DNA from: a virus
Length of the DNA: 64,000 nt
IMG/VR virus record: IMGVR_UViG_3300044710_000064
Coordinates: 5,060-69,059 of that record
Reading direction: 5' to 3' (one strand)
Part shown: piece after piece, positions 5,800 through 62,711 of the stretch
Numbering within the stretch: position 1 is the stretch's first letter
Layout of the letters: every line of letters starts with the position of its first letter
Notes under the pieces: model-generated
What the model was told of the DNA's origin: nothing
What the model saw: only the letters and a program-made list of their open reading frames with translations
Database searches by the model: none
Program-made: the position numbers and the translations under genes

Positions 5800-6762
5800 G
5801 TGGGCATTACTTCAATCGAATGGACCGACCGCACGTGGAATCCGGTGCGCGGCTGCTCGCGCGTCTCCCAGGGATGCGTCAACTGTTACGCAGAGCGGCA
5901 AGCGGCGCGGTTCGCCGGCGAAGGAGAGCCGTTCCATCAGTTCGTCGCGAAGGTTAATGGACATCCCGCCTGGACCGGCAAAGTAGAACTGGTAGAGAAG
6001 CACTTGGAAGATCCGCTGCACTGGCGCAAGCCCTGCAAGGTATTCGTGAACTCGATGAGTGATCTGTTCCACGAGGCGCTCCTAGATGAGGCCATTGATC
6101 GCGTGTTCGCAGTAATGGCGCTATGCCCGCAGCATACGTTCCAGATTCTTACGAAGCGACCGGAGCGGATGCACGAGTATCTGTTGCGCCCCTACCGAAC
6201 AGGTGATATCCAGGTGCATGTCAAAGAGCTTATCGACGTGCATCATTTACCCGATGCGGTGAACCGCGTATTTTACGGGCGCGTGGAAGAAGCGAAAGCG
6301 CTGTTTGACCGCATACTGGCCGAGCCTGGCCCCTATCCTGAATTCTCAGACACCGACATATGGCCGCTGCGAAATGTTTGGCTCGGCGTCTCAGTAGAAG
6401 ATCAAGCCAACAAACATCGCATCGACATATTGCGCCAAGTTCCGGCTGCGGTGCGTTTCTTATCGATTGAGCCGTTGCTTGAGGACATCGGCAAATTGAA
6501 CCTTGAAGGCATCCACTGGGTGATAGTGGGCGGAGAATCAGGACCAGGCGCGCGCCCACTTAGAGTTGAGTGGGTCCGGAGTATTCAGGCGCAGTGCAGG
6601 ACCGCGGAGGTAGCGTGCTTCGTGAAGCAGCTCGGTGCTAACCCGTTTGAGGGAGGGATGCCATTGCTGCTGGAGGACCGCAAAGGTGGCGACTGGGACG
6701 AATGGACTGTTGAATTGCGGGTGCGTGAATTTCCAAAAATTCTTGCGGAGGTCTCTGCTTGA
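5800..6762 (+). CDS. DUF5131 / phage Gp37-Gp68 family radical-SAM-like protein
   Basis: TSIEWTDRTWNPVRGCSRVSQGCVNCYAE, FVNSMSDLFH, FQILTKRPERM, RFLSIEPLL, WVIVGGESG. Confidence 0.92.
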   Translation: MGITSIEWTDRTWNPVRGCSRVSQGCVNCYAERQAARFAGEGEPFHQFVAKVNGHPAWTGKVELVEKHLEDPLHWRKPCKVFVNSMSDLFHEALLDEAIDRVFAVMALCPQHTFQILTKRPERMHEYLLRPYRTGDIQVHVKELIDVHHLPDAVNRVFYGRVEEAKALFDRILAEPGPYPEFSDTDIWPLRNVWLGVSVEDQANKHRIDILRQVPAAVRFLSIEPLLEDIGKLNLEGIHWVIVGGESGPGARPLRVEWVRSIQAQCRTAEVACFVKQLGANPFEGGMPLLLEDRKGGDWDEWTVELRVREFPKILAEVSA

Positions 6763-6824
6763 GCGCCAGCATCACATCCAACGGGCTAGCCCTGATTCGA
6801 AGTATGCTTTCCGAAGAGGAATGC

Positions 6825-7982
6825 ATGCCCCGAAAATATCAGAACCCTAAGTTGGAAGTTCGCCGAGATGTAGCCAGGCCCTTTTACTTCGTCCGTGTCA
6901 GCGTTAAGCGCATGACCGAGGATGGTCCGAAGCCAAAACGTAAAGTTGAGTTCATCGGATGGGTGGATGAGACGCCAAAGAAAGCCGCAATGAAGCGCCA
7001 CGCGGAAATCCTGGAAGTAGTCAACGCGGGTCGAGTTCTGATCCAATCCCAACTTCAGTTTAAGGACGTATGCACGCGGTTCCTTTCCGTCCGTCTTCCC
7101 CAGCTCGGAGTCTGTGCTCAAAAGAAGTACAAGACCCAGATCGAGAGACACATACTTCCGGCCTTCGGGGAATTGAAGCTTTGCGACATTGATGGAGCGG
7201 CAGTGGAAGGCTGGTTGAACGCGAAGAAAGAAGCGGGGCTCGGATGGTGGACGAGAATTGACCTCAAGGGCGTTCTGTCAGCCATCTTCACCGCGGCGAG
7301 AGCTTGGAAGCTCTGGGACGGAGCAAACCCCACCGAGGGAGTGAGGATCGGCCGGAAGCGCCTGGTTCGAGAGAAGCGATTGCTCACGGTCGACGAACTT
7401 CGATTGCTGCTGGGTTCCTTGGCTGACCGTCCGAAGTTCATCGTCCTGATAATCTTCGGTCTCGGATTGCGGATTAGTGAGACCTTGGGACTACGCTGGT
7501 CGGATATCGACTTCCAGGCGAAAACGATCACCATCCGGCGCCGCTGGCATCGGGGGGACCTGAGCGAAGAAAACGAGACCAAGACAGAAGCCTCGAACGC
7601 CACCATGCAGCTTGGGGCTTCGATGCTTCATGAATTCCAGAGCCGCGTCCCTCTGGACCGGCGGGACGGGTTCATATTTGTTGGGGACGATGGACACGTT
7701 CCGCCGGATGACAGAGATTTGCTGAGAGAAGAATTTCGTCCGGTGGTCAAGCGGCTGAAGCTCTACTACAGGGGATTCGGCTGGCACGCCTTTCGCCGGC
7801 AGAATATCACCTGGCGGCAGCAGATTGGCGGGGCTACTCCGCTAGAGGCCCAGCGCGCCGCGCGCCACGCCTCCCTGGACATGACCTACCTCTACACGCT
7901 TTCGGATGCGGAGCGGGAGACGGCTCAGCAACAAGCTATGTTTGACAAGTTGATGGAGATGCCGGAGGGACCGAAGCAATGA
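6825..7982 (+). CDS. int: Tyrosine integrase
   Basis: GLRISE (R), HAFRR (HxxR), ARH, MTYLY (Y); RBS GAGGA before ATG 6825 (ORF track extends to TTG 6759). Confidence 0.93.
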   Translation: MPRKYQNPKLEVRRDVARPFYFVRVSVKRMTEDGPKPKRKVEFIGWVDETPKKAAMKRHAEILEVVNAGRVLIQSQLQFKDVCTRFLSVRLPQLGVCAQKKYKTQIERHILPAFGELKLCDIDGAAVEGWLNAKKEAGLGWWTRIDLKGVLSAIFTAARAWKLWDGANPTEGVRIGRKRLVREKRLLTVDELRLLLGSLADRPKFIVLIIFGLGLRISETLGLRWSDIDFQAKTITIRRRWHRGDLSEENETKTEASNATMQLGASMLHEFQSRVPLDRRDGFIFVGDDGHVPPDDRDLLREEFRPVVKRLKLYYRGFGWHAFRRQNITWRQQIGGATPLEAQRAARHASLDMTYLYTLSDAERETAQQQAMFDKLMEMPEGPKQ

Positions 7983-49799: not shown

Positions 49800-51701
49800 T
49801 CAAATCTCAAACCTCGCCCTGATCGGTCGCTGTGGCTGAGCCTGCCGGGGTGGTGCGGGAGTATTCGCTATCCGAGCCTTCATCGCTTCCGCCCGGCCTT
49901 CCAGTTCTCGCCACTGCTCATCTTTGAATCGGTCCAACCCCACCACGTAAGCGGCCGCCCGTGCATAGATCCTACAATCGAGCGCTTCGTTACGCGGCCT
50001 GGTCTTCTGCCACTCTGGTTTCGGAAAACCCTTCTCGTACCGGGTCACCAATTGCTCGGCAGTTAGCTGCTGGAAGAACTCGGCGTCGTACGGCGGAAAA
50101 TGACAGAACCCTGGTGGATAGATCTCGCCCCTGTCCAATTCCTCGTCGGTCGGCATGCTCAACATCAGCCATCCGTAAAGCTCCGACTTCAGCAATCCTG
50201 TAGCGACGGGCCATATCTTTAGACCGTTTGCAATTCGTTTCCCGCCAATGGTGACGTCCACGGGCTTTGGATGAGCGACAGGTATATTGCCGCGAGGGCG
50301 CCCGTCAACCGCGATTGCCCTGCCGCCCTGAGCCCGGACCCAAGCGTAAACGTCATTCGTGGCATATCCGCTATCAACGGCCATCTTCGCGATAGGAAGT
50401 TGCAGGCCAGACTCATGAGGAAAGGTCTCATTGAGCAGGACCGCAAGCCTTCGCCAGACCTCCGGCTGTTGAGGATTCCCGTCCAAAACCCTGTAATCGA
50501 TCGACCATGATTCTTTCCCGCGTCCCCAGGCCACGATCTCGGCTTGGAGGTAGGTCTTTTGAACGTCCACTCCCGCAGTAAGAAACAAGCCATTCCACGG
50601 AACGTTACCCCGTTCATACCGCTCTCGTCGAGCTCTTTCGTACAAGAGTTCATCCGCCGGCGCCTCGCCTTTGCCGGTCCAGTTTTCGGCTAGCGACGTA
50701 TTGACGAAGGTTTGCAGGTCTCCCGGATTGTCCTTCTTTGAAAGGAAGTCTAGAACGATGTCCCGAAGCATTTTCCAGGGGCTGTAAAGCTCCGAAATCC
50801 AGAACCCTGCTACGCCGGCAAAGACCGCTTGGGCTCTCCACTCGCACTTCTCTACGGCTGCCCAACGTTCGGCATCGTCCCAGCCGGCATCGCAAAATTC
50901 GCAATGATAGAGAGCCGTCGCCGCTCGTTGCTCGAAGCTCAGGCTTTTGGAATTGTCCCAGCGGACCTGGCTTTCGAACTTCCGCATCAGGGATTGAAAC
51001 GCCCCGCAATGCGGACACGGCACGAAGCATTCCCGCTGATCCGATTGTTCGTAGGCCCGATCGATCTCCGACGCCAAGAATGTGGGGGAGCATGTCAGAA
51101 CTTCCTTCGCCCGGTGACGAAAGGTTGCCAGTCGTTTTCTGGCAAGGGCCAGCGGGTTGCCTTCCAAGGTCGGTTTGTACTTGTCGATCTCGTCGGCAAA
51201 CAGAAAACGGATGGCCCGCCTGGCCACGTTCCGCGGCGAGCCCGTGCCGGCGATCGCCAGCAATCCCCCGGGAAACAACTTCTCCGTAATGGTGCTGTCT
51301 GAGCTCCGGGTCTTCGATTCCGAGAAGAGGCCCCGTAAAACTGGGGTATCCCGGATCATGGGTGCGATTCGTTCCTTCGAGAAGTCTTTGGCGTCGGTAT
51401 CCCCCGGCTGCAGGAGAAGCATGGGGCCCGGATCTTGATGGGCGAAATACCCGATGGCGTTCTCGATTGTGACCGATTTCAGCATCTGGGTGGCTGATTT
51501 GATCACCACCCGGCGGACGCGAGGATCCGAAACCGCGTCCATGGGTTCCCGCTGAAAGGCTAAGGTCGTCCAAGGTCCTGGTTTGGCAGAGGCTTCCGGG
51601 CTCAGATGACGATACCGGTTCGCCCATTCCGACATGGTGAGAACCGGCGGCGGCGCCCAAAGCCGGCGCAATCGCTGTTCGAGCACTTCCCTGGAGATCA
51701 T
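49800..51701 (-). CDS. terL: Terminase large subunit (GpA family)
   Basis: SEWANRYR, KSATQMLKS, LFADEID, CSPT, VPCPHCG, TAGVDVQ, AVDSG, RNEALDC. Confidence 0.96.
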   Translation of the reverse strand: MISREVLEQRLRRLWAPPPVLTMSEWANRYRHLSPEASAKPGPWTTLAFQREPMDAVSDPRVRRVVIKSATQMLKSVTIENAIGYFAHQDPGPMLLLQPGDTDAKDFSKERIAPMIRDTPVLRGLFSESKTRSSDSTITEKLFPGGLLAIAGTGSPRNVARRAIRFLFADEIDKYKPTLEGNPLALARKRLATFRHRAKEVLTCSPTFLASEIDRAYEQSDQRECFVPCPHCGAFQSLMRKFESQVRWDNSKSLSFEQRAATALYHCEFCDAGWDDAERWAAVEKCEWRAQAVFAGVAGFWISELYSPWKMLRDIVLDFLSKKDNPGDLQTFVNTSLAENWTGKGEAPADELLYERARRERYERGNVPWNGLFLTAGVDVQKTYLQAEIVAWGRGKESWSIDYRVLDGNPQQPEVWRRLAVLLNETFPHESGLQLPIAKMAVDSGYATNDVYAWVRAQGGRAIAVDGRPRGNIPVAHPKPVDVTIGGKRIANGLKIWPVATGLLKSELYGWLMLSMPTDEELDRGEIYPPGFCHFPPYDAEFFQQLTAEQLVTRYEKGFPKPEWQKTRPRNEALDCRIYARAAAYVVGLDRFKDEQWRELEGRAEAMKARIANTPAPPRQAQPQRPIRARFEI

Positions 51702-52216
51702 GCCGCATTCGTTTCACTCAACGCGCTCAATGCTTTCCGGACTTCATTGTCGATAATGGCCTGACATTCCAGGACGGAGGTGATAACAGCAACCCGCGGC
51801 GCCACTTCGTTCGCGAGCAGGAGAAGCCGGCCGCGCGCCGAACTGATCATGTTTGCGATGAGCTTTTCGACTTCAGCGACCAGCATTACCTCACCCTTCC
51901 GTTTGGCGAGGTCAAGCTCCTTCTCGAGAACCTTGAGCCATTGGGTTCGGCGGGTAGCTTCGTAGAGAGATTCCGGATCCGCTTTCGAGGAACTCTTACC
52001 GGGACCCTTCCGGAGCTTCTCAGCCGGCTGGACCGCCGGTTTGGGTTCGACCGAAGGGCGCCGCTGCCGATGATCGACGTTCACATCCCAGACGGCTCTC
52101 ACCTTCTCCAGGTCGAAACTGCCGTCCGGTTCTCGTGGAATCCGACCCTTCCGAGCAGCCTTATTGATGGCCGTGTGGGAAACCCCGAGCTCGGCGCCAA
52201 TCTCTCGGGAGGTCAT
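51698..52216 (-). CDS. terS: Terminase small subunit (Nu1-like)
   Basis: N-terminal HTH (IGAELGVSHTAINKA); ELDLAKRKGEV; overlaps terL start. Confidence 0.85.
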   Translation of the reverse strand: MTSREIGAELGVSHTAINKAARKGRIPREPDGSFDLEKVRAVWDVNVDHRQRRPSVEPKPAVQPAEKLRKGPGKSSSKADPESLYEATRRTQWLKVLEKELDLAKRKGEVMLVAEVEKLIANMISSARGRLLLLANEVAPRVAVITSVLECQAIIDNEVRKALSALSETNAA

Positions 52217-52223
52217 GACAGGC

Positions 52224-52331
52224 GGTTTCCAAGGTTTCCAGCCAAACTGGAAACCCGGTTTCCAAGCATGTAGCTGACGGGGTTCCGCAAACATTTTACC
52301 TGCCTGCAGGGGAGGGCCAGGGGAAGGACCC
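52224..52331 (-). other. Putative cos region (cosQ-like GGGTCCT, cosN-like dyad, cosB-like repeats)
   Basis: GGGTCCT at 52331-52325; GCAGGCA-N7-TGTTTGC imperfect dyad; four TGGAAACC copies (one inverted) at 52224-52264. Confidence 0.65.
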
Positions 52332-52349
52332 GAAAACAATAGGAAGGCC

Positions 52350-54449
52350 TCATAAAGCGTTCAGTATCCTGGCCGACCCGTCAACGCTGACAAAGGATCG
52401 GGAGCCGTCCACAATCGCGAGACAGCGTATTGAGCAGTCAACCGGCACAAGCATTCGAATCGGCCCTGTGCCCGTACCGGTGAATTGCGCGTAGATCCAG
52501 TTCGCCAAGCCCTGGAGCGTATCCGCGATAGCGCTTAGTGTCCGCGAAACCATGCGATAAACTGATGCCGGCTGGCTTGGAAGTTGCCCGGGTGTGCTCC
52601 TTGACGTCGCCCTGGCTATGGTGACGCTGCCGATAAGTAGGCTTGCGGTGAAGGAGAGCACATAGGCGCCAGACCGAGCGATCGCAGCGATGCCGTTGAA
52701 ACTAATCGTCGTAGCAGACGCTGCCAGGCCAGTAAGCCTTGCGCTTGCTCCGCCGAACAACGGGTGCGATCCGCTTGTCGCATGCACCGTAGATTTTGCG
52801 GTCGAACCTGCTTGCCCCGCGGTCGCTCCCAAGGCAGTTCGGTCAGTCGCGCCGGCTCGCTGTGCGCCGAACAATCCGGCGGCCGAAGCCGAAGACCTGC
52901 TGCCCGATCGAGTGACGTTCCCACCTGCCGCTAATGTTGAACTAGAATTAGACCTATCGGTACCTCGCAGAGTGGTGGCGGCGAATGCAGCAAGCGAGGC
53001 TCCGAGGCTCAGAATGTAAAGTGATCCTCCCTTAATGGCTACAAGAGCGCCAGAAAAGGCAGACTCAACGGCCGCAATCGCATGAGACGTCAGCTTACTC
53101 ACTCCACCCATTAGTGATGCGCTCGAAGCTACGCCTGACCGAGAGGTTTGAGTTCCCCGCGATCCCATCATTTGAACCGTTGCAGACGAGATCGCGTGGC
53201 TTATGAATCGTATGAATGAGCCAAAGAATGAACCAGAAAGTGCGGCTTCGCTTCGGCCAGTCTGTTTGGAAGCTGTCACTTGGAACGATCCAGTTGATGC
53301 AGGAGTGGTCTTCGCCATTGCTTGCGAATCGATTGCGCTCATGTCTGCCATTGAAGCCGGCCGAGTTTCTAACATCACTCGGGATGTGATTCCGCTGGGT
53401 GTCGTGGTGTTCCCACTCGAAGACCTAGACTCACTGCGCAAAGTGCTCGCTGCTAGCGCCAAGACCGAAGCCGCGACCGTAAATGTATAGGTGACTGCAG
53501 TCTTAGCCACCGTTAAAACCGCATTGAAGGCGTTGGCCACTGCGGCAACACCATGGGATGTGACGCGATTTGTCGAGGTAGCAAAAGAACTAGCCGCCGC
53601 AGTCACGGTATGGGCGACCGCTGAGCCGCGCGCGCCAGCGAACAAACTGGACGCCGCAGACGCAACGAAGCCAGTCATCTTGGATAAATTTGCACCCGCC
53701 GTTAGTGTCGCGGCGGTAGCAACATTGCCCACCGATTTTACGATACCGGCGGCGAAAGCAGCGCTTGACGTGGCCATGCTAACCAAGCCAGCCGTCTTGC
53801 TGCTAATTGCGGCCATCATCGCCGTTGCTGCGGTTTGAAAAAATGAGATCAGCTTGAAACTGGTCGCGCCAAATAGCGAAGTTTTGCTCGTGTTGCTATG
53901 GCTGGTAGCGAAACCGCCGAGAACGGCACGAATAGCGATCGTCGCGGCCTGGGCAACATTCCCGGTCGACCTCAAGATGTTGGCACCGAACATTCCATTG
54001 GAGGCCGCGCTCACAACTCCTGTGGTTTTCGTGCCAATTGCGGCCATCGTCGGCGCTGCAGCCGTTTCGAATAGCGACGTCAATTTGGCCCCGACTGCGC
54101 CGAACAATGAGGTGCCGCTCGCTGCGTTGTGGCTCGTGGAAAACCCGCCAAGATGGGCAATGCCGGCGGCTGCACTTGCATTTCCCGATCGGCCTGTCAG
54201 TTTTAGCCAGGCTGCCGCGCATGTCGATTGGATTGCCGTCAAAGCGCGCGCGGTGAAGCGCGTTGAAGTTGCTGATGGGGCGAGCGCCCTAGCCGTTTTT
54301 GAGGATGAGGTATTCGCCAACCTAGCAGCATTCAGATTCTGCGCACTCGCGGAAGCCGACAGGTAATAAGCTGAGCCTGTAAGCTTTAGGCCGGATTCAA
54401 TGATCGGATTCCCACGAACTCTGCGAGCTTGGTAAATACGGCCGATCAT
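52350..54449 (-). CDS. Ala/Ser/Thr-rich repetitive fibre-like protein
   Basis: 699 aa with short periodic repeats and larger internal duplications. Confidence 0.65.
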   Translation of the reverse strand: MIGRIYQARRVRGNPIIESGLKLTGSAYYLSASASAQNLNAARLANTSSSKTARALAPSATSTRFTARALTAIQSTCAAAWLKLTGRSGNASAAAGIAHLGGFSTSHNAASGTSLFGAVGAKLTSLFETAAAPTMAAIGTKTTGVVSAASNGMFGANILRSTGNVAQAATIAIRAVLGGFATSHSNTSKTSLFGATSFKLISFFQTAATAMMAAISSKTAGLVSMATSSAAFAAGIVKSVGNVATAATLTAGANLSKMTGFVASAASSLFAGARGSAVAHTVTAAASSFATSTNRVTSHGVAAVANAFNAVLTVAKTAVTYTFTVAASVLALAASTLRSESRSSSGNTTTPSGITSRVMLETRPASMADMSAIDSQAMAKTTPASTGSFQVTASKQTGRSEAALSGSFFGSFIRFISHAISSATVQMMGSRGTQTSRSGVASSASLMGGVSKLTSHAIAAVESAFSGALVAIKGGSLYILSLGASLAAFAATTLRGTDRSNSSSTLAAGGNVTRSGSRSSASAAGLFGAQRAGATDRTALGATAGQAGSTAKSTVHATSGSHPLFGGASARLTGLAASATTISFNGIAAIARSGAYVLSFTASLLIGSVTIARATSRSTPGQLPSQPASVYRMVSRTLSAIADTLQGLANWIYAQFTGTGTGPIRMLVPVDCSIRCLAIVDGSRSFVSVDGSARILNAL

Positions 54450-54451
54450 GG

Positions 54452-56101
54452 TTAGTGAAACGCCACCACCATTACACTGTTGCTTGATGCATTCTGCTGT
54501 GCCGTCCAGCCAAAGTTGATCTGTGTGGTGTTGCCCGACCAGTAATGCGCTGCGACATCGCCATTGGTCATATCGTTTGCATCACCGCCGCAGACACCTG
54601 CTGTCGTCACCGTGCAGGCATTCGTCAGAGTAGGGCCTGGATAATCCAGGACTACGCCAGTCGGCTGCGAACTGGTCAAGTAAGGGCCGTTTCCGGCCGA
54701 CCCTATCGCGATGAACAGATCGGCGGAATTCCCAGGCGTTGCAAGGGGTAAGCCAGTACATGTGACATCGCTGCCCGAAGTTCCTTGGCAATTCCCTGCG
54801 CCCGTGCCCGTGCTTATGGCGTTAAAGACGGCGCTGGAAGTTACCTGAGTGCTTCCGCTCCCCGCGCTAAAGCCGGTATCAAGAGCCGTGACATTCGTGC
54901 AGTAGAATCTGATGAGATCCACATTCGCGCCGCCGCTTACCGTGGTTACCACAAATGTGTTCGGGTTAGAGATCGTGACCCCCAGGGAGTAGAACACTTT
55001 CGGGTTACCGCCGCCATTCGAGACGGCCGTGTACGTGTCGCTGTTGCTATCCGTAATAGAGCTGAGGCTCGCCGCGTCGTCGGTTATGATGACGCCAGTT
55101 GTGTTCGTCGGGCACCCTACATTGGTGACCAGCGTGATCGCGCCACCCGTCATGGTCGCAGAGGACACTAGAACAGCTTTGCCGGCCGATGGAGCTGAAC
55201 CACCCGAACCAGGCTTGAAAGCCGCCGCCATGATCGTGAAGGAATCATGTGTTGACTGAGAAATTGTTAATTGCGGGGTGAAGGTCGTGCCGGTCGCACT
55301 GCAGTAAAATTCGGCGTGGCCCGCGTAGGTAGACTCGTCAACCAGTGTGCAGTTGGAAGGCACCGTGATCGAATTCCAGATGTCTGAATAGTCAATGTTG
55401 CCGAAGATTGTTTCGTCGTCCACCTCAACATAAACGAGGTCGCCGATTACCACCGTGAGCGCCGTACCAGAGATATTAGGCGCAGTATTGTTGACCGGGA
55501 CCACGGCGGTCTTGCACGAACTTGTACGGAGGGCGCTCGTGGTGGCCACATTGTAAAAGTTTCCAATGTTGAAGTATGAATCACTAATCTTATCCGGGTG
55601 CGTTTCCGTAACCTGCGTTACTCCAGACGCCGGCGGCACAAAGTTAGCGGAGTAGTAAATGCCGTGATCGGCTCCGTTTGCCACTGCCAAGCCAGCGTCT
55701 TTGCAGCCAGAGCCAGCGGTGAATACCGCGTTCCACGTATTGCCGGTGCCGTTATCCGTAAAGGTTGGAGCGCACGGCGCTGTACACGAATGCGGATAGC
55801 CGTTTCCGGTCGTCGGGTTGTTTGGCCATGCACCCGACATAATGACAAGTGATCCAGATGTGACCGCGTGAGGAGAACCAGCGGGATCAAGCGCAAAGAC
55901 GTTCCCGTTCACTCCCGTGGTTGAGCCACCTCTTCCCTTGTCGGTGATGTTGTTCCCAAAAAATTGGTTTAGGGTTGGCGTGCCCGCGCTCGAAACGACC
56001 CCGAGTTTGTGCTTCTTTCTGAAAAGCACATCCTCGATCGGGTCCTGTGGAACGAGTGCTAGCCCTATCAGCATGAGGCTGAGAATGGAAAAGAAATTCA
56101 C
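54452..56101 (-). CDS. Beta-rich Cys-paired protein with signal-like N-terminus
   Basis: MNFFSILSLMLIGLALVP-Q; 12 Cys; TDNGTGNTW and TDSNSDTY motifs typical of fibre-tip domains. Confidence 0.65.
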   Translation of the reverse strand: MNFFSILSLMLIGLALVPQDPIEDVLFRKKHKLGVVSSAGTPTLNQFFGNNITDKGRGGSTTGVNGNVFALDPAGSPHAVTSGSLVIMSGAWPNNPTTGNGYPHSCTAPCAPTFTDNGTGNTWNAVFTAGSGCKDAGLAVANGADHGIYYSANFVPPASGVTQVTETHPDKISDSYFNIGNFYNVATTSALRTSSCKTAVVPVNNTAPNISGTALTVVIGDLVYVEVDDETIFGNIDYSDIWNSITVPSNCTLVDESTYAGHAEFYCSATGTTFTPQLTISQSTHDSFTIMAAAFKPGSGGSAPSAGKAVLVSSATMTGGAITLVTNVGCPTNTTGVIITDDAASLSSITDSNSDTYTAVSNGGGNPKVFYSLGVTISNPNTFVVTTVSGGANVDLIRFYCTNVTALDTGFSAGSGSTQVTSSAVFNAISTGTGAGNCQGTSGSDVTCTGLPLATPGNSADLFIAIGSAGNGPYLTSSQPTGVVLDYPGPTLTNACTVTTAGVCGGDANDMTNGDVAAHYWSGNTTQINFGWTAQQNASSNSVMVVAFH

Positions 56102-56102
56102 T

Positions 56103-57245
56103 TTACTCGGAAATGTTCTTGATTTCCAGCCAGCGGAACGTGACGTTGATCGTTCCGCCCGTAAGCGCCGCGTTGCCGAGATTCACGCAAACACCTTGAC
56201 CGGTTCCGATCAGTATCTGGGGTTTCAATCGCCCATTCCAAATGAAAAGATCATCAGGAACCGTGGAGGCAGAAACCAAAAATGCTGTATATGCTTGATG
56301 AATTGTGCCGACTGAAGCGCCGGCGGTCGGCCCCGTTCCCGTGTAGCTGACCGGCGTTGTGCTTGCGGCCGCGTAGTTGGTTACATCCCCGCGGACCGCA
56401 GTCATGTTGGCGGAAGTTCCGCCACTTTCCGCAGCGGAGTGCCGGATAAGCTGCACATTGACTAAGCCAGCAGTCGTCTGAATCCCGCTGACATCTGCCT
56501 CGTAGAGGAGTACGGTGTTGGTTGAATTGCCATAAATGCAGGCGTTGTCCGTGGTACTGGATGCCGCGAAATTGGCGCTGGCTTCGTAACTCGCCGGTCG
56601 AAGCCCTGGGATCAAGCTGGTCCAAAGCGTACCATCCGTTCCCACATTGAGCGCGGCATCCCGGCCTTGAGTTTCTGCCGAGCCATTGGACGGATCGGTT
56701 TGGATAATGCCGGGGAGTTCTCCGAGGCGATTAGTTCCCGCCGCCGCGCCGTTGTTCGAAAGTGCGCCATTCACGTTGGGAGTATTGGCCACCGTGACCG
56801 GCAGGGCAACTGCATAACAGACGCAGGTCGCGTAGGGCGTCACATTTGCGGTGCCCGTGATAGCTGTCGTCAACTTCAAAACGAGCTTGTAAGCGCCCGC
56901 CATGTAAATCAGAAATTGCTTGTTCGTCGATGCCTGCAAAGTGTAGGGCATCGAGACTTGAGCATATGTCGAACTCGTCGGATCGACGACCTGCCACGCT
57001 TGCAGGTTTACGAGGTTTCCGTCTCCTGGATCAGCTTGAAACTGAATCGCGCCGCCTGTTAGCGTCGTCGTCTGATCGAGGGTTACCAGCACGTGAGTGC
57101 CGGATGCCGCCTGGGCGAGTGTTTGCGTGGTGTTATTGGAGGTCGACGATGTCCAAACTGCTCCCGTATAGGGCGTGTTGCCGCACCCGGAAGCTTGCGC
57201 AAAGACAACCGAAGCGCCGAGCAAAATGAGAACGAGCAGCTTCAC
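56103..57245 (-). CDS. Beta-sandwich virion-like protein with Sec signal peptide
   Basis: MKLLVLILLGASVVFA-Q; C-terminal TFRWLE. Confidence 0.65.
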   Translation of the reverse strand: MKLLVLILLGASVVFAQASGCGNTPYTGAVWTSSTSNNTTQTLAQAASGTHVLVTLDQTTTLTGGAIQFQADPGDGNLVNLQAWQVVDPTSSTYAQVSMPYTLQASTNKQFLIYMAGAYKLVLKLTTAITGTANVTPYATCVCYAVALPVTVANTPNVNGALSNNGAAAGTNRLGELPGIIQTDPSNGSAETQGRDAALNVGTDGTLWTSLIPGLRPASYEASANFAASSTTDNACIYGNSTNTVLLYEADVSGIQTTAGLVNVQLIRHSAAESGGTSANMTAVRGDVTNYAAASTTPVSYTGTGPTAGASVGTIHQAYTAFLVSASTVPDDLFIWNGRLKPQILIGTGQGVCVNLGNAALTGGTINVTFRWLEIKNISE

Positions 57246-57246
57246 C

Positions 57247-57741
57247 TTATTCGATCCACTTGGCGTAGCAGATCGTGTTGACGCTCGAGCCGAAAGTCAC
57301 GCGGATGCGTCCGAACTTCCCAGCGCGCACCTTGAATTCCTCACCCTGGGTAAATGGAAAGACGTACTGATTTGTCGGAGCGATAAGTTGGATATCGCCG
57401 TTTCGCACCGTTGTGATTGAGCCTTCCGAGCTTGAGGTGTAACCCGATGCCGATGTGCCCAGCGTTAAGAGACTCGCGTCGTCGTTCGCGTCTCCGAATT
57501 TGGTGATATCGGCCGCAGCATAAGCCGTCACTGTGGCCGCAACGTCAGTTTCGATCAATTCGACAACGCCGGGTGTTGCCGCGGCCGATCCATCGAAAGA
57601 GATTCCCCATTCGGTTATCAGGATTGAGGTATTGGACGGAGGCGCAAGCTGAAGAAGCGTCTTAATCGACGTTCCGGTAGCGATCTTGGCAAAAGCAGCC
57701 GTGGTCTGCATCGGCCCGTTGAACGCTTTGAAGATTTTCAT
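57247..57741 (-). CDS. Beta-sandwich virion-like protein
   Basis: KTLLQL...ITEWGISFDG...VVEL..; C-terminal YAKWIE. Confidence 0.65.
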   Translation of the reverse strand: MKIFKAFNGPMQTTAAFAKIATGTSIKTLLQLAPPSNTSILITEWGISFDGSAAATPGVVELIETDVAATVTAYAAADITKFGDANDDASLLTLGTSASGYTSSSEGSITTVRNGDIQLIAPTNQYVFPFTQGEEFKVRAGKFGRIRVTFGSSVNTICYAKWIE

Positions 57742-57765: not shown

Positions 57766-59931
57766 CTACTTGCATTGAATCTGGGATAGCCGTCCAACCG
57801 TGCACGTTTCGCCGAGAATGCCAGTCCAGTTGACAGTGGGCCAGACGAGGGAAGCGGCCTTCACCACCCCATTGAGAAGCGTCGAGTTGACGCCAAGATA
57901 GGACAGGATCGGCAGCATTGCCGTGATGTTGGATTGCAGCCGGGCGATCGTTGCGGCATCATTCGCCGAGTTTATCTGTGCGGCCGTGAGTTGCTGAAAA
58001 TACTGCAACCAGATAGTCGTCCACGTGGTCAGTTCCTGACTGAATTGAGAGCCGAGTTCAACGGAATTGGCATATTCGCCGGGCCAGAAGGTCAGCACAT
58101 CAGGAGTCGTGTCTACATAATTGCCGCTCTGCAGCCCCTTCGCCAACCATTCGAGCGCCAAGCCGGCCGTGCCCATCAAAATATTCGTCCCGTTCCAATT
58201 CAAATTGTTATTGAGGTAAGAAAGCGAGTAGGCCCAATCGATTGGATAGGTCCCCTTTGCCATCCCGTTGCCGTCATTGAGGATCAGTTGTAGCTGGTAC
58301 CACGCAAACGAAAGATAAACGTGCGCCGCGGCTGTTCCATTAGCAAGCCCAGGGGATGGACGGGGAACATCGGCCATGAATGGCGAACCCATAAATGGCA
58401 TGTTGCTGAACCAAGCTCGGCTAGCAGCCTTAGGTCCGAATGCAACACTTGCCGTGGACTCCAGACCGAATTCCTGGTTCAGTTCCCACTGTTTGACTTC
58501 AGACCAAAGTCGATAGGAATAAAATTCAGCTACATACGTTGAGTTTTGCCATTGCGGCGAAGTTGCAGGAAGCTGAACCTGCGCGCGAAACGCCCAGTCA
58601 TCTGCCAGCCAATAAGCAAAATCCCCGGACTTAATGGCAGCAGCATAAGCTGCGGAAGTCCCAGGCGCCAAATCCGCGCGAGTTTTGAGGTAGTTCTTGT
58701 ACAAAGAACTAGAGGTCCACAAAGCGGCGCCGAAGCCATCGAGAGGATGAACGATGGGAAGCCAACGATTCCAAGTCGGAAGTTGAAGCGCAATCGGTGT
58801 TTCTCGAGCGTTGAGGTAAGAGCCTGCCGCCAAGACGGTCGGAGGTCCTGTCAATGTCAGGTACGGCAGCATCGCCGCATCATTAGGAAGCACCGCGTTC
58901 AATCCCGCACCGGCCGCCCAATTTGTGACTGGCTTAGAATCGATTCCTGGGCCTGGTTGATAAGGAGGATTCCATGGGAGGCCTGGCGCTGGCGTTGCGA
59001 GCGATCGGATGTAGCTCGCGATTTGCAAGCCTTGTTGCGCGGTCAAACCATGAAAAACTGCGCGGGCCGCGATAGAGGTATTGGAATAATTAAAATACTT
59101 TAGGTCACGGCCATCCTGCGTGTGGCAATCCGCGCAGGAGGCGATGATGTTAGACGTGGGGCCGACCATCTGGGTATGGAGTGTGTTCTCGGCTCGCCAA
59201 GCTGCCAGGCCGGCCGCGATATCTGCGGCGTCATTTAGAGGGGGCGTCCAATTCGCCGGATTGTCCCACACGAAAGTAGATGCCGGGATCAGATTACCGC
59301 CGGAGTTGGCGACGTTGAAGGCCAATACCCTGAAGCCGGAAGTAATGCCATCGGTCCCATTAAATCTGAACGCGATTTGATTGGCGCCCACGGTCACTGC
59401 GCCAGGCAGCGGAAGGCTCAGATTGAATGTCGAGAACCCTCCTCCGATTCCACCGAACTGATTGGCGTACTGGTCTGTCAGTGTCACGGCGGGCGTACTG
59501 ATAGGCGTCCAGGCTCCCTGGTTCACCCGTACGCTCATCTCTGTCTGATATCTCAGGTTATTAACCTGCATGGTGAGCGTTAAGGAACCTGTCAGATCCA
59601 CCCCGGGTGGAATGCCAAACTTCACGGTGCTCGTGGTTCCGTTGGCTCCGACGACCTCGACCGGAAGCGTGATCGTGTCCGCCACCAGCGTAATGGCCTG
59701 ACTGAAAATTGTTTGACTGCCGTCTACAGCCGTGACGGTGACCGTCTGCTGGTAGGGATTCGTCGCGGGGGCTGTATACAAGCCGGCGCTCGATACCGTC
59801 CCTACCGCCGGAGTAACGGACCAAACCACAGTGGGCGCCCCCAGTTGGATGGTTTGACCAGACGTCAATAGAATCGGGACTTGGGCGACCGCGCCCCATA
59901 CCAGCAACGTGAACAGGAAGCAAACTCTCAT
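57766..59931 (-). CDS. Secreted protein with c-type heme-binding motif
   Basis: Signal peptide GAVA-Q; Ig-like GTVSSAGLYTAP; CADCH at 59122-59136. Confidence 0.75.
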   Translation of the reverse strand: MRVCFLFTLLVWGAVAQVPILLTSGQTIQLGAPTVVWSVTPAVGTVSSAGLYTAPATNPYQQTVTVTAVDGSQTIFSQAITLVADTITLPVEVVGANGTTSTVKFGIPPGVDLTGSLTLTMQVNNLRYQTEMSVRVNQGAWTPISTPAVTLTDQYANQFGGIGGGFSTFNLSLPLPGAVTVGANQIAFRFNGTDGITSGFRVLAFNVANSGGNLIPASTFVWDNPANWTPPLNDAADIAAGLAAWRAENTLHTQMVGPTSNIIASCADCHTQDGRDLKYFNYSNTSIAARAVFHGLTAQQGLQIASYIRSLATPAPGLPWNPPYQPGPGIDSKPVTNWAAGAGLNAVLPNDAAMLPYLTLTGPPTVLAAGSYLNARETPIALQLPTWNRWLPIVHPLDGFGAALWTSSSLYKNYLKTRADLAPGTSAAYAAAIKSGDFAYWLADDWAFRAQVQLPATSPQWQNSTYVAEFYSYRLWSEVKQWELNQEFGLESTASVAFGPKAASRAWFSNMPFMGSPFMADVPRPSPGLANGTAAAHVYLSFAWYQLQLILNDGNGMAKGTYPIDWAYSLSYLNNNLNWNGTNILMGTAGLALEWLAKGLQSGNYVDTTPDVLTFWPGEYANSVELGSQFSQELTTWTTIWLQYFQQLTAAQINSANDAATIARLQSNITAMLPILSYLGVNSTLLNGVVKAASLVWPTVNWTGILGETCTVGRLSQIQCK

Positions 59932-62110: not shown

Positions 62111-62620
62111 TTACGCCGCAAGCATTCCGCTTTCAACTTCCACGGATACACCACGGTTGAACAATTCCACGCCTACGATGAAGCGCAGCTTGTTCTTGAT
62201 TTCGACCAGCCGGCCCCGGGTCCCAGCAAACGGTCCCCGGGTAATGGTGACTTGCTGACCCACTTTCAGAAGGTTCCAAGGCTCCGCCAATCCACTGTCG
62301 ACTACAATCCGGAGGTTCTCGATTTCGATGTGGGGAACTGTGGCCGGGGTAGATCCGAAGCTCAGAATGTCGATGACGCCGGGAACATTGAGAACGGCGC
62401 CACGCTCCTCGATTACGAACCGCCCGAAGACGTAGCCGGTGAACAGGGCTCTCCGGATTTCGGTCGGCTTCCAGTGGGAATAACGCCGCATCTCAGAGTA
62501 TTGGGGATTGAAAACCTCAATATCGCGCTGGTAAATCCGCTCAGAAACTACAGATTCTATTCCAGCTTGCACCCGCAATACGTACCACGGGCTACCTGCT
62601 TCAAGAGAATGCGTTGCCAT
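62111..62620 (-). CDS. NusG-paralogue antiterminator (UpxY/RfaH-like)
   Basis: NGN domain WYVLRV..G.E, LFTGYVF; KOW domain VGQQVTITRGPFAG..G. Confidence 0.9.
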   Translation of the reverse strand: MATHSLEAGSPWYVLRVQAGIESVVSERIYQRDIEVFNPQYSEMRRYSHWKPTEIRRALFTGYVFGRFVIEERGAVLNVPGVIDILSFGSTPATVPHIEIENLRIVVDSGLAEPWNLLKVGQQVTITRGPFAGTRGRLVEIKNKLRFIVGVELFNRGVSVEVESGMLAA

Positions 62621-62681: not shown

Positions 62682-62711
62682 ATTGTATGCGGAGAAACAT
62701 TGCGGTGTCAA
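62682..62711 (-). promoter_or_regulatory. Sigma70 promoter for the late arm
   Basis: TTGACA-N18-TACAAT on the - strand, about 60 nt upstream of the nusG-like ATG. Confidence 0.8.

Follow-up and report, generated by a model that had tools for sequence, protein, structure and literature searches.

Why would a soil phage carry, in the midst of its own genes, a gene for a protein that looks both exported and heme-binding? The question is raised by P0001, a 721-residue open reading frame (ORF) at 57766..59931 on the minus strand of a 64,000-nucleotide stretch of the IMG/VR virus record IMGVR_UViG_3300044710_000064. This stretch, the window, comprises bases 5060-69059 of the linear, 69,059-bp record, whose CheckV completeness is 90%. 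An original prediction, drawn from the letters alone, took the ORF for a phage late gene encoding a secreted c-type cytochrome-like protein within a morphogenesis operon. As judged from its relatives, the heme-motif gene is accessory cargo among ordinary phage genes, derived from a host, and its product, which very probably binds one heme, is a member of a very large, unnamed bacterial family. With moderate confidence, P0001 can be regarded as a heme protein that is directed at exopolysaccharide, cleaves or modifies this polymer and is used by the phage late in infection or in lysogens to loosen or remodel the matrix. As such, it may represent a new kind of sugar-polymer-directed redox protein.

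The heme-motif protein and its family

The predicted 721-residue ORF is real and lies on the minus strand, where it starts with ATG; the plus-strand reading of the same interval has stops throughout. The public gene call for the locus (P0002) is 671 residues long and starts 50 residues inside this ORF. The longer ORF is the better reading because homologues align from residue 8 onward; with the P0002 start, the signal-peptide-like segment is lost along with part of the Ig-like domain, such that an automatic annotation would miss the predicted export. In the whole-protein AlphaFold2 (AF2) model (pLDDT 91.0, pTM 0.88), the protein has three parts, two beta domains and an all-helical remainder, to which the following features can be assigned.

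57766..59931, minus strand: gene for the 721-residue CxxCH protein P0001, predicted to be exported (ORF and translation; 1743 homologues; AF2 pLDDT 91.0)
59881..59931, minus strand: signal-peptide-like N-terminus, residues 1-17, MRVCFLFTLLVWGAVAQ (hydrophobicity; low-confidence model helix 3-12)
59674..59883, minus strand: Ig-like (Big_2-type) domain, residues 17-86 (VIA-align Z 7.0-8.2; Foldseek Big_2-CBM56 E 1.7e-4)
59299..59673, minus strand: beta-sandwich resembling a carbohydrate-binding module (CBM), residues 87-211, part of the conserved core (CBM35, CBM6 and BcsB matches)
58987..59244, minus strand: cytochrome c-like domain, residues 230-315 (hhalign against PF13442 domains; secondary structure)
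59122..59136, minus strand: predicted CADCH heme-attachment motif, residues 266-270 (conservation; shuffles)
57814..58986, minus strand: helical domain, residues 316-706, opening with an invariant WNPPYQPGPG loop (AF2 model of residues 225-721)
57772..57804, minus strand: C-terminal hairpin with Cys710 and Cys720, a probable disulfide (strands 710-712 and 718-720; both Cys at least 90% conserved)

The chief element is the heme motif. It occupies residues 266-270 within the segment SCADCHTQDGRDLKYF (residues 265-280) and is followed by FHGL at 293-296 and QIASYIRSL at 303-311; together with the terminal Cys pair, every sequence feature listed at the outset is present. Cysteines occur only at positions 4, 266, 269, 710 and 720, so that the mature protein has four, the CxxCH pair and the terminal pair. 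A CxxCH arises in just 21 of 100,000 shuffles of the protein. The heme reading presupposes a conserved motif, and CxxCH is indeed kept in 256 of 257 homologues, the lone exception being a 325-residue C-terminal fragment. A stricter form, C..CH followed by DG.DL.Y, is found in 219 of the 257, and 208 of these 219 also have an [aromatic/L/M]-H-x-[LMIV] pattern within 60 residues. In an alignment of 60 sequences, C266, C269 and H270 are invariant, while H294, C710 and C720 are at least 90% conserved.

The surroundings of the motif point to cytochrome c as well. When a 42-sequence family segment was compared with 17 genuine PF13442 domains from three family-bearing Bryobacterales genomes, hhalign aligned 52 columns, CxxCH through to the C-terminal helix, at a probability of 93.8% (E 1.8e-7); the suspected likeness to the C-terminal helix of class I cytochromes c is thus one of homology. 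Congruent with this, the model places helices at 235-246, 266-269, 275-279, 284-293 and 298-310, with an N-terminal helix preceding the motif, a pattern that fits cytochrome c. Some homologues are annotated at source as "cytochrome c553" or "mono/diheme cytochrome c", and cytochrome c families appear in the ESM Atlas at only 0.80-0.81, a lead and not evidence. From the profile alignment and the helices, residues 230-315 are read as a shortened heme c domain of class I type; a sixth ligand, if there is one, would be His294, the conserved His of FHG, which the hhalign alignment places at the edge of a deleted Met loop. It is because of this deletion that the domain is not filed as a canonical class I cytochrome.

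The same deletion lends some substance to a heme-free alternative, in which the CxxCH would serve as a metal site or redox-active dithiol in a domain that has lost its cytochrome function. Three facts count against a working heme domain. The family has a gap where the 17 real domains have the axial Met loop (MPAF, with an invariant Met-Pro); Pfam Cytochrom_C PF00034 matches only 6 of 60 members, at best with a below-threshold E of 0.026, and no PF13442 match is listed among the same 60; and the H294 pattern is missing in 11 of the 219 strict-motif homologues. Against the heme-free alternative stand the invariance of both Cys and the His, the homology to real cytochrome c domains that spans the motif to the C-terminal helix, and the co-occurrence of export-type signals with host maturation genes, which together render it very improbable. 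As for maturation, the three family-bearing Bryobacterales genomes each have three PF01578 (CcmC/CcmF/CcsA-type) genes above cut-off and 23-33 cytochrome c domain matches, and the presumed host lineage can therefore mature such a protein.

Export is suggested by the hydrophobic N-terminus (11-residue Kyte-Doolittle mean of about 2.0-2.35 over residues 1-6), which ends in AVAQ. By these two marks the anticipated signal peptide is present as a signal-peptide-like segment, and all four full-length viral homologues have such segments too. The next domain had been expected to be an Ig-like repeat; the fold is confirmed and the repeat is not, AF2 and VIA revealing a single domain at 17-86 that superposes on 62-71 residues of Big_2/Ig domains with a root-mean-square deviation (rmsd) of 2.3-3.0. 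Its structural matches include phage T5 pb6, the phi29 prohead and the SU10 tail. The expected beta-domain corresponds in the AF2 model to the sandwich at 87-211, which matches the fold of CBM35, CBM6 and BcsB-type modules (VIA Z 6.2-7.5). The CBM-like Pfam family PF14683 matches P0001 below the cut-off (E 0.0017) and is found in 47 of 60 members of the family, with a best E of 5.1e-6.

Beyond these two domains, solved structures offer little guidance. Fold searches with the whole model (Foldseek against the PDB, VIA-wide, pdb_via and BFVD) yielded only Ig and CBM matches within residues 17-212. A separate model of residues 225-721 (pLDDT 91.7, pTM 0.91), which covers the helical domain, had no Foldseek match in the PDB at E<=0.001 (best 0.94). 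VIA-align against 48,161 representative chains peaked at Z 8.7 with a designed helical repeat protein at an rmsd of 7.5, and Foldseek's own match list for this model, rescored with pdb_via, reached Z 7.3 with generic helical-repeat rows. No cytochrome c stands among the top-50 fold matches, in lists that larger domains fill and that are uninformative for a small heme domain. Pfam has no family in the helical domain across the 60 members, neither PHROGs nor NCBIfam includes the P0001 family, and sequence searches of the PDB gave no significant relative (0 matches in one search; E 0.14 and 5.2 in another). By these model comparisons the helical domain, about 390 residues long, is without a convincing solved relative, which does not in itself prove a new fold.

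The family is large by any count. At E<=0.001, 1743 relatives of P0001 were found among 8000 candidates scored; an exhaustive search gave 1373 cluster representatives at 50% identity, 701 of them at E<=1e-30; and 539 family loci were confirmed in bacterial genomes taken one per species. The best 78 distinct loci of the 539 were studied. They belong mostly to Bryobacterales, Bryobacteraceae and other Terriglobia, with further carriers in Archangium and Vitiosangium (Myxococcota), one Chthonomonadaceae bin and one Rhodothermales bin. Carriers can have multiple copies (three in genome G014; 92 ORFs in 75 loci). In a profile search of the order of genome G001, the family occurred in 3 of 201 genomes, with five candidates scored per genome, so that the family is either patchy or under-counted there. 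For most representatives the alignment opens at query residue 75-90 and closes near 575 or at 700-720, and the conserved unit is accordingly the beta-sandwich, the CxxCH domain and the helical domain. The sandwich, the heme domain and roughly 260 residues of the helical domain always occur together. The flanks vary: the stalks ahead of the core are built of Big_2, I-set, PKD, Big_7 or cadherin domains, the C-terminal flank is also variable, and members may bear additional modules such as dockerin (9/60), malectin, PA14 and the CBM-like module counted above.

Exopolysaccharide loci and the putative active centre

The genomic company of the bacterial members suggests a substrate. In 18 bacterial loci whose three ORFs on each side were compared with Pfam, nine have a glycosyltransferase, Poly_export (Wza), Bac_transf or Acyl_transf_3, and three more have methyl- or sulfotransferases only. 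Clustering of flanking ORFs identified as the commonest neighbours, by number of loci, Poly_export (17), a NusG paralog (17), GT4 (12) and GDP-mannose dehydratase (10), then GT2 (8), Acyl_transf_3 (8), FkbM methyltransferase (6) and TPR proteins (6). The arrangement is exemplified by the locus of genome G001, where the family gene is flanked by a NusG paralog and Wza in one direction and in the other by a GDP-mannose dehydratase, five GT4 genes, a methyltransferase and a Polysacc_synt_3 (Wzx-type) flippase; its gene content marks the locus as one for exopolysaccharide of the Wzx/Wzy type. The link to surface polymers that had been guessed at from the letters is thereby strengthened, both by these neighbourhoods and by the beta-helix, depolymerase-like neighbours of the homologues in other viral contigs (see below). 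A second large protein, with a median length of 1263 residues and a weak Big_7 match, adjoins the family gene in 9 of the 78 bacterial loci:

L010:9801-13994 and L013:9277-13233: examples of the second large protein, present in seven other loci besides

The NusG paralogs afford a second connection to these loci, in that the phage has a NusG-like gene of its own at the head of the gene run that includes P0001. A NusG paralog and Poly_export stand beside the family gene in the same 19 of 78 loci. The phage NusG-like protein is 41-44% identical to host-locus NusG paralogs (best 12 of 19 tblastn match rows), which are encoded on the opposite strand, 1-2 kb upstream of the family gene, and it falls in the same blastp cluster as the NusG paralogs of Wza-containing Bryobacterales exopolysaccharide operons. 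Examples of the host paralogs are:

L012:4132-4737: host NusG paralog
L028:3076-3624: host NusG paralog
L076:3790-4374: host NusG paralog

Together with the P0001 family itself, this clustering means that the phage carries relatives of two linked host exopolysaccharide-locus genes. The leaders of the host NusG genes share k-mers, for example ATCCGTCAACC in 11-13 of 19 leaders. None of the top-ranked host-leader k-mers occurs in the leader of the phage gene, so there is no sign of a common control element.

If the product does act on exopolysaccharide, what might it do there? Two loops frame the heme domain, DGRDLKYFNYSN following the heme motif and WNPPYQPGPG following the last helix of the domain, and both are extremely conserved. 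Within the 86-residue family segment, 13 positions are invariant, compared with five invariant columns in the 17 real cytochrome c domains, a degree of conservation more to be expected of an enzyme or a tight interface than of a plain electron carrier. In the helical domain, D398, E491, R505, D565, Y568, W387, W390, W507 and W544 are invariant across the 60-sequence alignment, and the first five, along with several of the Trp residues, could well contribute to an active centre.

Such conservation is also a difficulty for the nearest competing explanation, in which the heme domain is an electron shuttle only, feeding a separate polysaccharide-active oxidative enzyme while the rest of the protein targets the glycan. 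A precedent is CjX183, the c-type cytochrome domain of the secreted protein Cbp2D of Cellvibrio japonicus, which is reported to reduce lytic polysaccharide monooxygenases (LPMOs) (PMC8981238). P0001 shares the relevant layout, a single predicted heme c domain in a secreted-type protein with a carbohydrate-binding-type module, and a bis-His six-coordinate heme, if H294 is the sixth ligand, would suit electron transfer. Yet conservation around the heme motif and in WNPPYQPGPG is far above that in real electron-transfer domains; sandwich, heme domain and helical residues are invariably found together; no LPMO or other oxidase family was found among the scanned neighbours; and no PDB chain matches in sequence. 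A shuttle is therefore an unlikely explanation.

A further possibility dispenses with catalysis altogether. The protein could be a matrix or surface component that binds exopolysaccharide as an adhesin or organiser, its heme being structural or sensing, and the phage copy could alter biofilm or adsorption, for instance in superinfection exclusion. The variable Ig-like, I-set, PKD, Big_7 and cadherin stalks of the relatives are typical of surface adhesins, the family is associated with exopolysaccharide loci, and the phage has an integrase and is temperate, all of which agree with such a role. It is nonetheless quite unlikely: the invariant D398, E491, R505, D565, Y568 and Trp set has more the look of an active site than of a lectin surface, fusions to dockerin are typical of enzymes, and the gene sits in a late-gene run away from the integrase. 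An exopolysaccharide-directed protein with an active centre remains the preferred reading.

One might hope that the helical domain would betray its chemistry through its fold. Its partial matches to (alpha/alpha) toroid polysaccharide lyases and hydrolases extend over 124-143 residues with Z 5.8-6.8, which is noise level for helical proteins and less than chance alone would give for helical models, as applies to each of the following.

7qsj_B, methylmannose polysaccharide hydrolase: Z 6.8, 130 residues, rmsd 3.4 (noise level)
8fnx_A, hyaluronate lyase: Z 6.6, 124 residues (noise level)
1j0m_A, xanthan lyase: Z 6.1 (noise level)
5ohc_A, glucosylglycerate hydrolase: Z 6.0 (noise level)
1f1s_A, hyaluronate lyase: Z 5.8 (noise level)

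The gene in its phage, and its origin

That the window is of phage origin, as first claimed, is borne out by its terminase, portal, protease, major head, tape-measure and integrase genes. Early-type genes (Gp157-like, DUF5131, DUF2303, Mom-like, Dam and helix-turn-helix proteins) occupy the plus strand from 76 to 20647. Amid this early run, at 6759-7982 on the plus strand, lies a tyrosine integrase gene, situated between the DUF5131 gene and a 319-residue ORF and not at a genome end. The phage is judged temperate because of this integrase; the window has no tRNA genes, and hence no possible attachment site of that kind, and no Rfam families.

The minus strand, as delineated with Pfam and PHROGs, has one long run of genes. 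It starts with the NusG-like gene, continues through ORFs of 105, 194, 78 and 310 residues to the P0001 gene, and then through ORFs of 164, 380, 549 and 699 residues to the small and large terminase subunits (TerS and TerL). Past TerL come a lambda-family portal, an S49 protease, a major head protein and a head-tail attachment protein, and the far part of the run encodes a 2004-residue tape-measure-like protein and large distal tail proteins. The features that bracket P0001 are these.

62682..62711, minus strand: sigma-70-like promoter, TTGACA-18 nt-TACAAT, 11/12 (consensus scan; just upstream of the NusG-like gene)
62111..62620, minus strand: NusG-like antiterminator heading the operon (PF02357 5.6e-13 plus KOW; phrog_6386 "transcription antiterminator" 2.2e-24)
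57247..57741, minus strand: g164 (164 residues), downstream neighbour across a 24-nt gap (conserved phage family of about 165 residues; 5427 matches, no Pfam)
51698..52339, minus strand: small terminase subunit, downstream end of the accessory block (phrog_57 2.2e-25)

Within the NusG-to-TerS run the P0001 gene is co-directional with its neighbours, at gaps of 16 and 24 nt. Contamination with host DNA or misassembly was considered and ruled out, phage genes lying on both sides in one strand run. A scan found no strong minus-strand promoter or terminator directly flanking the gene, and no convincing minus-strand terminator interrupting the run. The only strong promoter-like site is the one upstream of the NusG-like gene, which is a lead only, since the scan counted no more sites in total than in shuffles. 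By this arrangement the gene looks co-transcribed with the late genes, and its late expression is plausible. In lambdoid phages, lysis genes and cargo occupy the interval from antiterminator to terminase, and the position of P0001 may be comparable by analogy. Among the holders listed, no RNA sequencing run has the gene; a single DNA run does, and it may be the source itself.

Where did the gene come from? In a FastTree of 82 rows (the query, five viral and 76 bacterial sequences; the sixth viral copy, L007, and two bacterial loci were dropped by motif or length filters), the window protein falls in a seven-row set with six Bryobacterales rows at a support of 96. The phylogeny against bacterial homologues that had been called for thus speaks against a phage-specific protein, P0001 nesting in a Bryobacterales clade. 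At least three separate positions in the tree are taken by viral copies; the pairing of L002 with L006, both on long branches, may be artefactual. In G001's order, 29 of 201 genomes have TerL relatives, at up to 51% identity. From nine of these genomes come ten TerL-related prophage regions (TerL 42-50% identical, about 16 kb upstream covered), which include TerS in eight cases, and in 0 of 10 do they contain the P0001 gene, the NusG gene or any other gene of the block. Since the ten regions are without the gene, P0001 is accessory cargo nested in a Bryobacterales clade. A role in morphogenesis is not indicated. Scans of viral contigs with TerS and NusG revealed no related phages, the latter giving two weak partial matches.

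Relatives are rare among known viruses. None was found in 50,697 GenBank phage records, in agreement with the original statement that no characterised equivalent is known in tailed phages, and full-text searches, judged by titles and abstract openings, turned up nothing on a c-type cytochrome encoded by a phage, nor on this family. Six IMG/VR contigs have a relative. In L003 and L005 (L004 repeats L005), the homologue is 2044-2257 residues long with eight Big_7 domains, to which L003 adds CBM_4_9, and directly follows a beta-helix/K1-lyase_C protein, between head and tape-measure-like genes. In L002 it comes after a tail-fibre-like ORF, with a pectate-lyase-like beta-helix protein nearby; in L006 it separates the head genes from the neck terminator and tail sheath; and in L007 it is cut by the contig end. 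The beta-helix/K1-lyase_C proteins (L003:278-3484 and L005:2521-5772), which are of the tailspike-depolymerase type, have signal-peptide-like starts, as do the L002 tail-fibre-like ORF and a 413-residue ORF of L006. Judging by these starts, such soil phages seem to encode clusters of exported proteins inside structural gene regions.

The same placements could be taken to mean that P0001 is a virion fibre, spike or decoration protein, assembled in the cytoplasm with a heme-free CxxCH. Its Ig-like domain resembles those on phage tail tubes and capsids, its viral homologues have head genes on one side and tail genes on the other in L005 and L006 and follow a tail-fibre-like ORF in L002, and the g164 family of its neighbour is found in structural modules. 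A virion protein is nevertheless improbable, because P0001, the four full-length viral homologues and their beta-helix neighbours all have signal-peptide-like starts, CxxCH and its surroundings are equally conserved in viral and bacterial copies, the bacterial members are chromosomal and reside in polysaccharide loci, and the gene is absent from all ten TerL-related prophage regions.

The neighbours themselves look like ordinary phage genes. The 120 best relatives of g164 are 55-80% identical, 155-170 residues long and mostly on phage-sized contigs; in four IMG/VR contigs g164 homologues occupy structural modules beside tailspike- or tail-fibre-like ORFs, and none of these four has a P0001 homologue. 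Its string EWGI also occurs in g310, with no significant similarity between the two. The gene g380 (56103-57245, minus strand) shares a conserved C-terminal part of about 220 residues with 95 proteins, mostly on small contigs, in which it constitutes stand-alone proteins of 225-250 residues or is fused in proteins of 560-660. Its neighbour g549 (54452-56101, minus strand) resembles viral hypothetical clusters (0.95), and both have hydrophobic N-termini. Directly upstream of TerS, the 699-residue ORF (52350-54449, minus strand) is extremely rich in Ser, Ala, Thr and Gly, with motifs that recur non-tandemly; it has no family in Pfam, PHROG or NCBIfam, and there are no DNA tandem repeats in 52000-57300.

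A coherent account can be assembled from these elements. A temperate siphophage of a Bryobacterales-like acidobacterium would have taken the P0001 gene from its host lineage. The product, made with the late genes downstream of the phage NusG-type antiterminator, would be exported by Sec and receive one covalent heme c at C266/C269/H270 from the host cytochrome c maturation system. Outside the cytoplasm it would act on host exopolysaccharide, the beta-sandwich holding the glycan while an active centre, composed of the heme, the DGRDLKYFNYSN and WNPPYQPGPG loops and the helical domain rich in Trp, Asp, Glu, Arg and Tyr, would cleave or modify the polymer, probably by redox chemistry. The slime layer around the infected or lysogenic cell might thereby be loosened or remodelled, with consequences for progeny escape, spread or adsorption. 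Taken a step further, the family would constitute a new class of heme-c enzymes for the redox cleavage or modification of exopolysaccharide, a heme counterpart to the copper LPMOs, captured repeatedly by soil phages and exported in soluble form rather than mounted on the tail; this extension is speculative and on balance unlikely.

To the three observations on the heme domain set out above, several others must be added on the debit side of this account. Six of the 18 loci, including all three from Archangiaceae, have no polysaccharide genes nearby, and a tblastn count was positive in only 29 of 78, a lower bound, as it employed just 14 exopolysaccharide-type queries and 19 of the loci measure less than 12 kb. 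No structural relative of the helical domain is significant, its toroid enzyme matches being at noise level. The tree is by FastTree only, unrooted and without an approximately unbiased (AU) test, and the host assignment is indirect, coming from TerL relatives in one order without a control order. Finally, g164, g380 and g549 are ordinary-looking phage genes, possibly structural, which leaves some small probability of a virion link for P0001.

Exported c-type heme proteins lie outside the known toolkit of tailed phages, and the P0001 gene points to a very large unnamed family within the exopolysaccharide loci of abundant soil Acidobacteriota. Heme action on exopolysaccharide, if true, would bring new chemistry to polysaccharide turnover in soils and biofilms, and phages would be seen to export soluble matrix-active enzymes. 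Cultured carriers, Archangium and Vitiosangium, make the question testable.

Comparison with known systems

Several known systems share parts of this picture. Phage depolymerases, whether beta-helix tailspikes or of the K1-lyase type, are phage-encoded like P0001, whose probable target is likewise the surface polysaccharide of the host; the homologues of L003 and L005 stand directly after a beta-helix/K1-lyase_C protein. In contrast to these depolymerases, the P0001 fold has no beta-helix, its start is signal-peptide-like, it bears a heme motif, and its activity is only proposed. Bacteria themselves encode glycanases of the AlgL, PslG and BcsZ type inside exopolysaccharide loci, and the P0001 family is similar in being a predicted exported protein encoded within an exopolysaccharide biosynthesis and export locus. 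Glycanases of this type are not known to carry heme c, and the partial matches of the P0001 helical domain to toroid lyases and hydrolases (Z 5.8-6.8) are weak, at noise level.

On the cytochrome side, the large exported PSCyt/PSD families of the planctomycete type have one CxxCH fused to uncharacterised domains, with a suspected role in polysaccharide use. None of 60 P0001 family members matches such Pfam models at E<=0.1. The likeness to PF13442 Cytochrome_CBB3 is one of alignment (93.8%), encompassing CxxCH, a DG turn and the C-terminal helix (ASYIRSL in P0001, AYLRS in PF13442); unlike PF13442, the P0001 family has no MPAF Met loop, H294 stands at its edge, and Pfam models remain sub-threshold.

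CjX183 of Cbp2D comes closer: here, too, a small domain of the c-type cytochrome kind forms part of a secreted protein with several domains and a link to the turnover of polysaccharide (PMC8981238). The P0001 family differs in having no detectable similarity to any PDB chain, in joining its heme domain, devoid of the Met loop, to a conserved beta-sandwich and a 390-residue helical domain, and in residing in exopolysaccharide biosynthesis loci and phages, with no LPMO seen nearby. Accessory phage genes that target the surface polysaccharide of the host are a kind already known, as are cytochrome domains within secreted proteins directed at carbohydrates, and, by analogy of concept, CjX183 is the nearest characterised counterpart of P0001.

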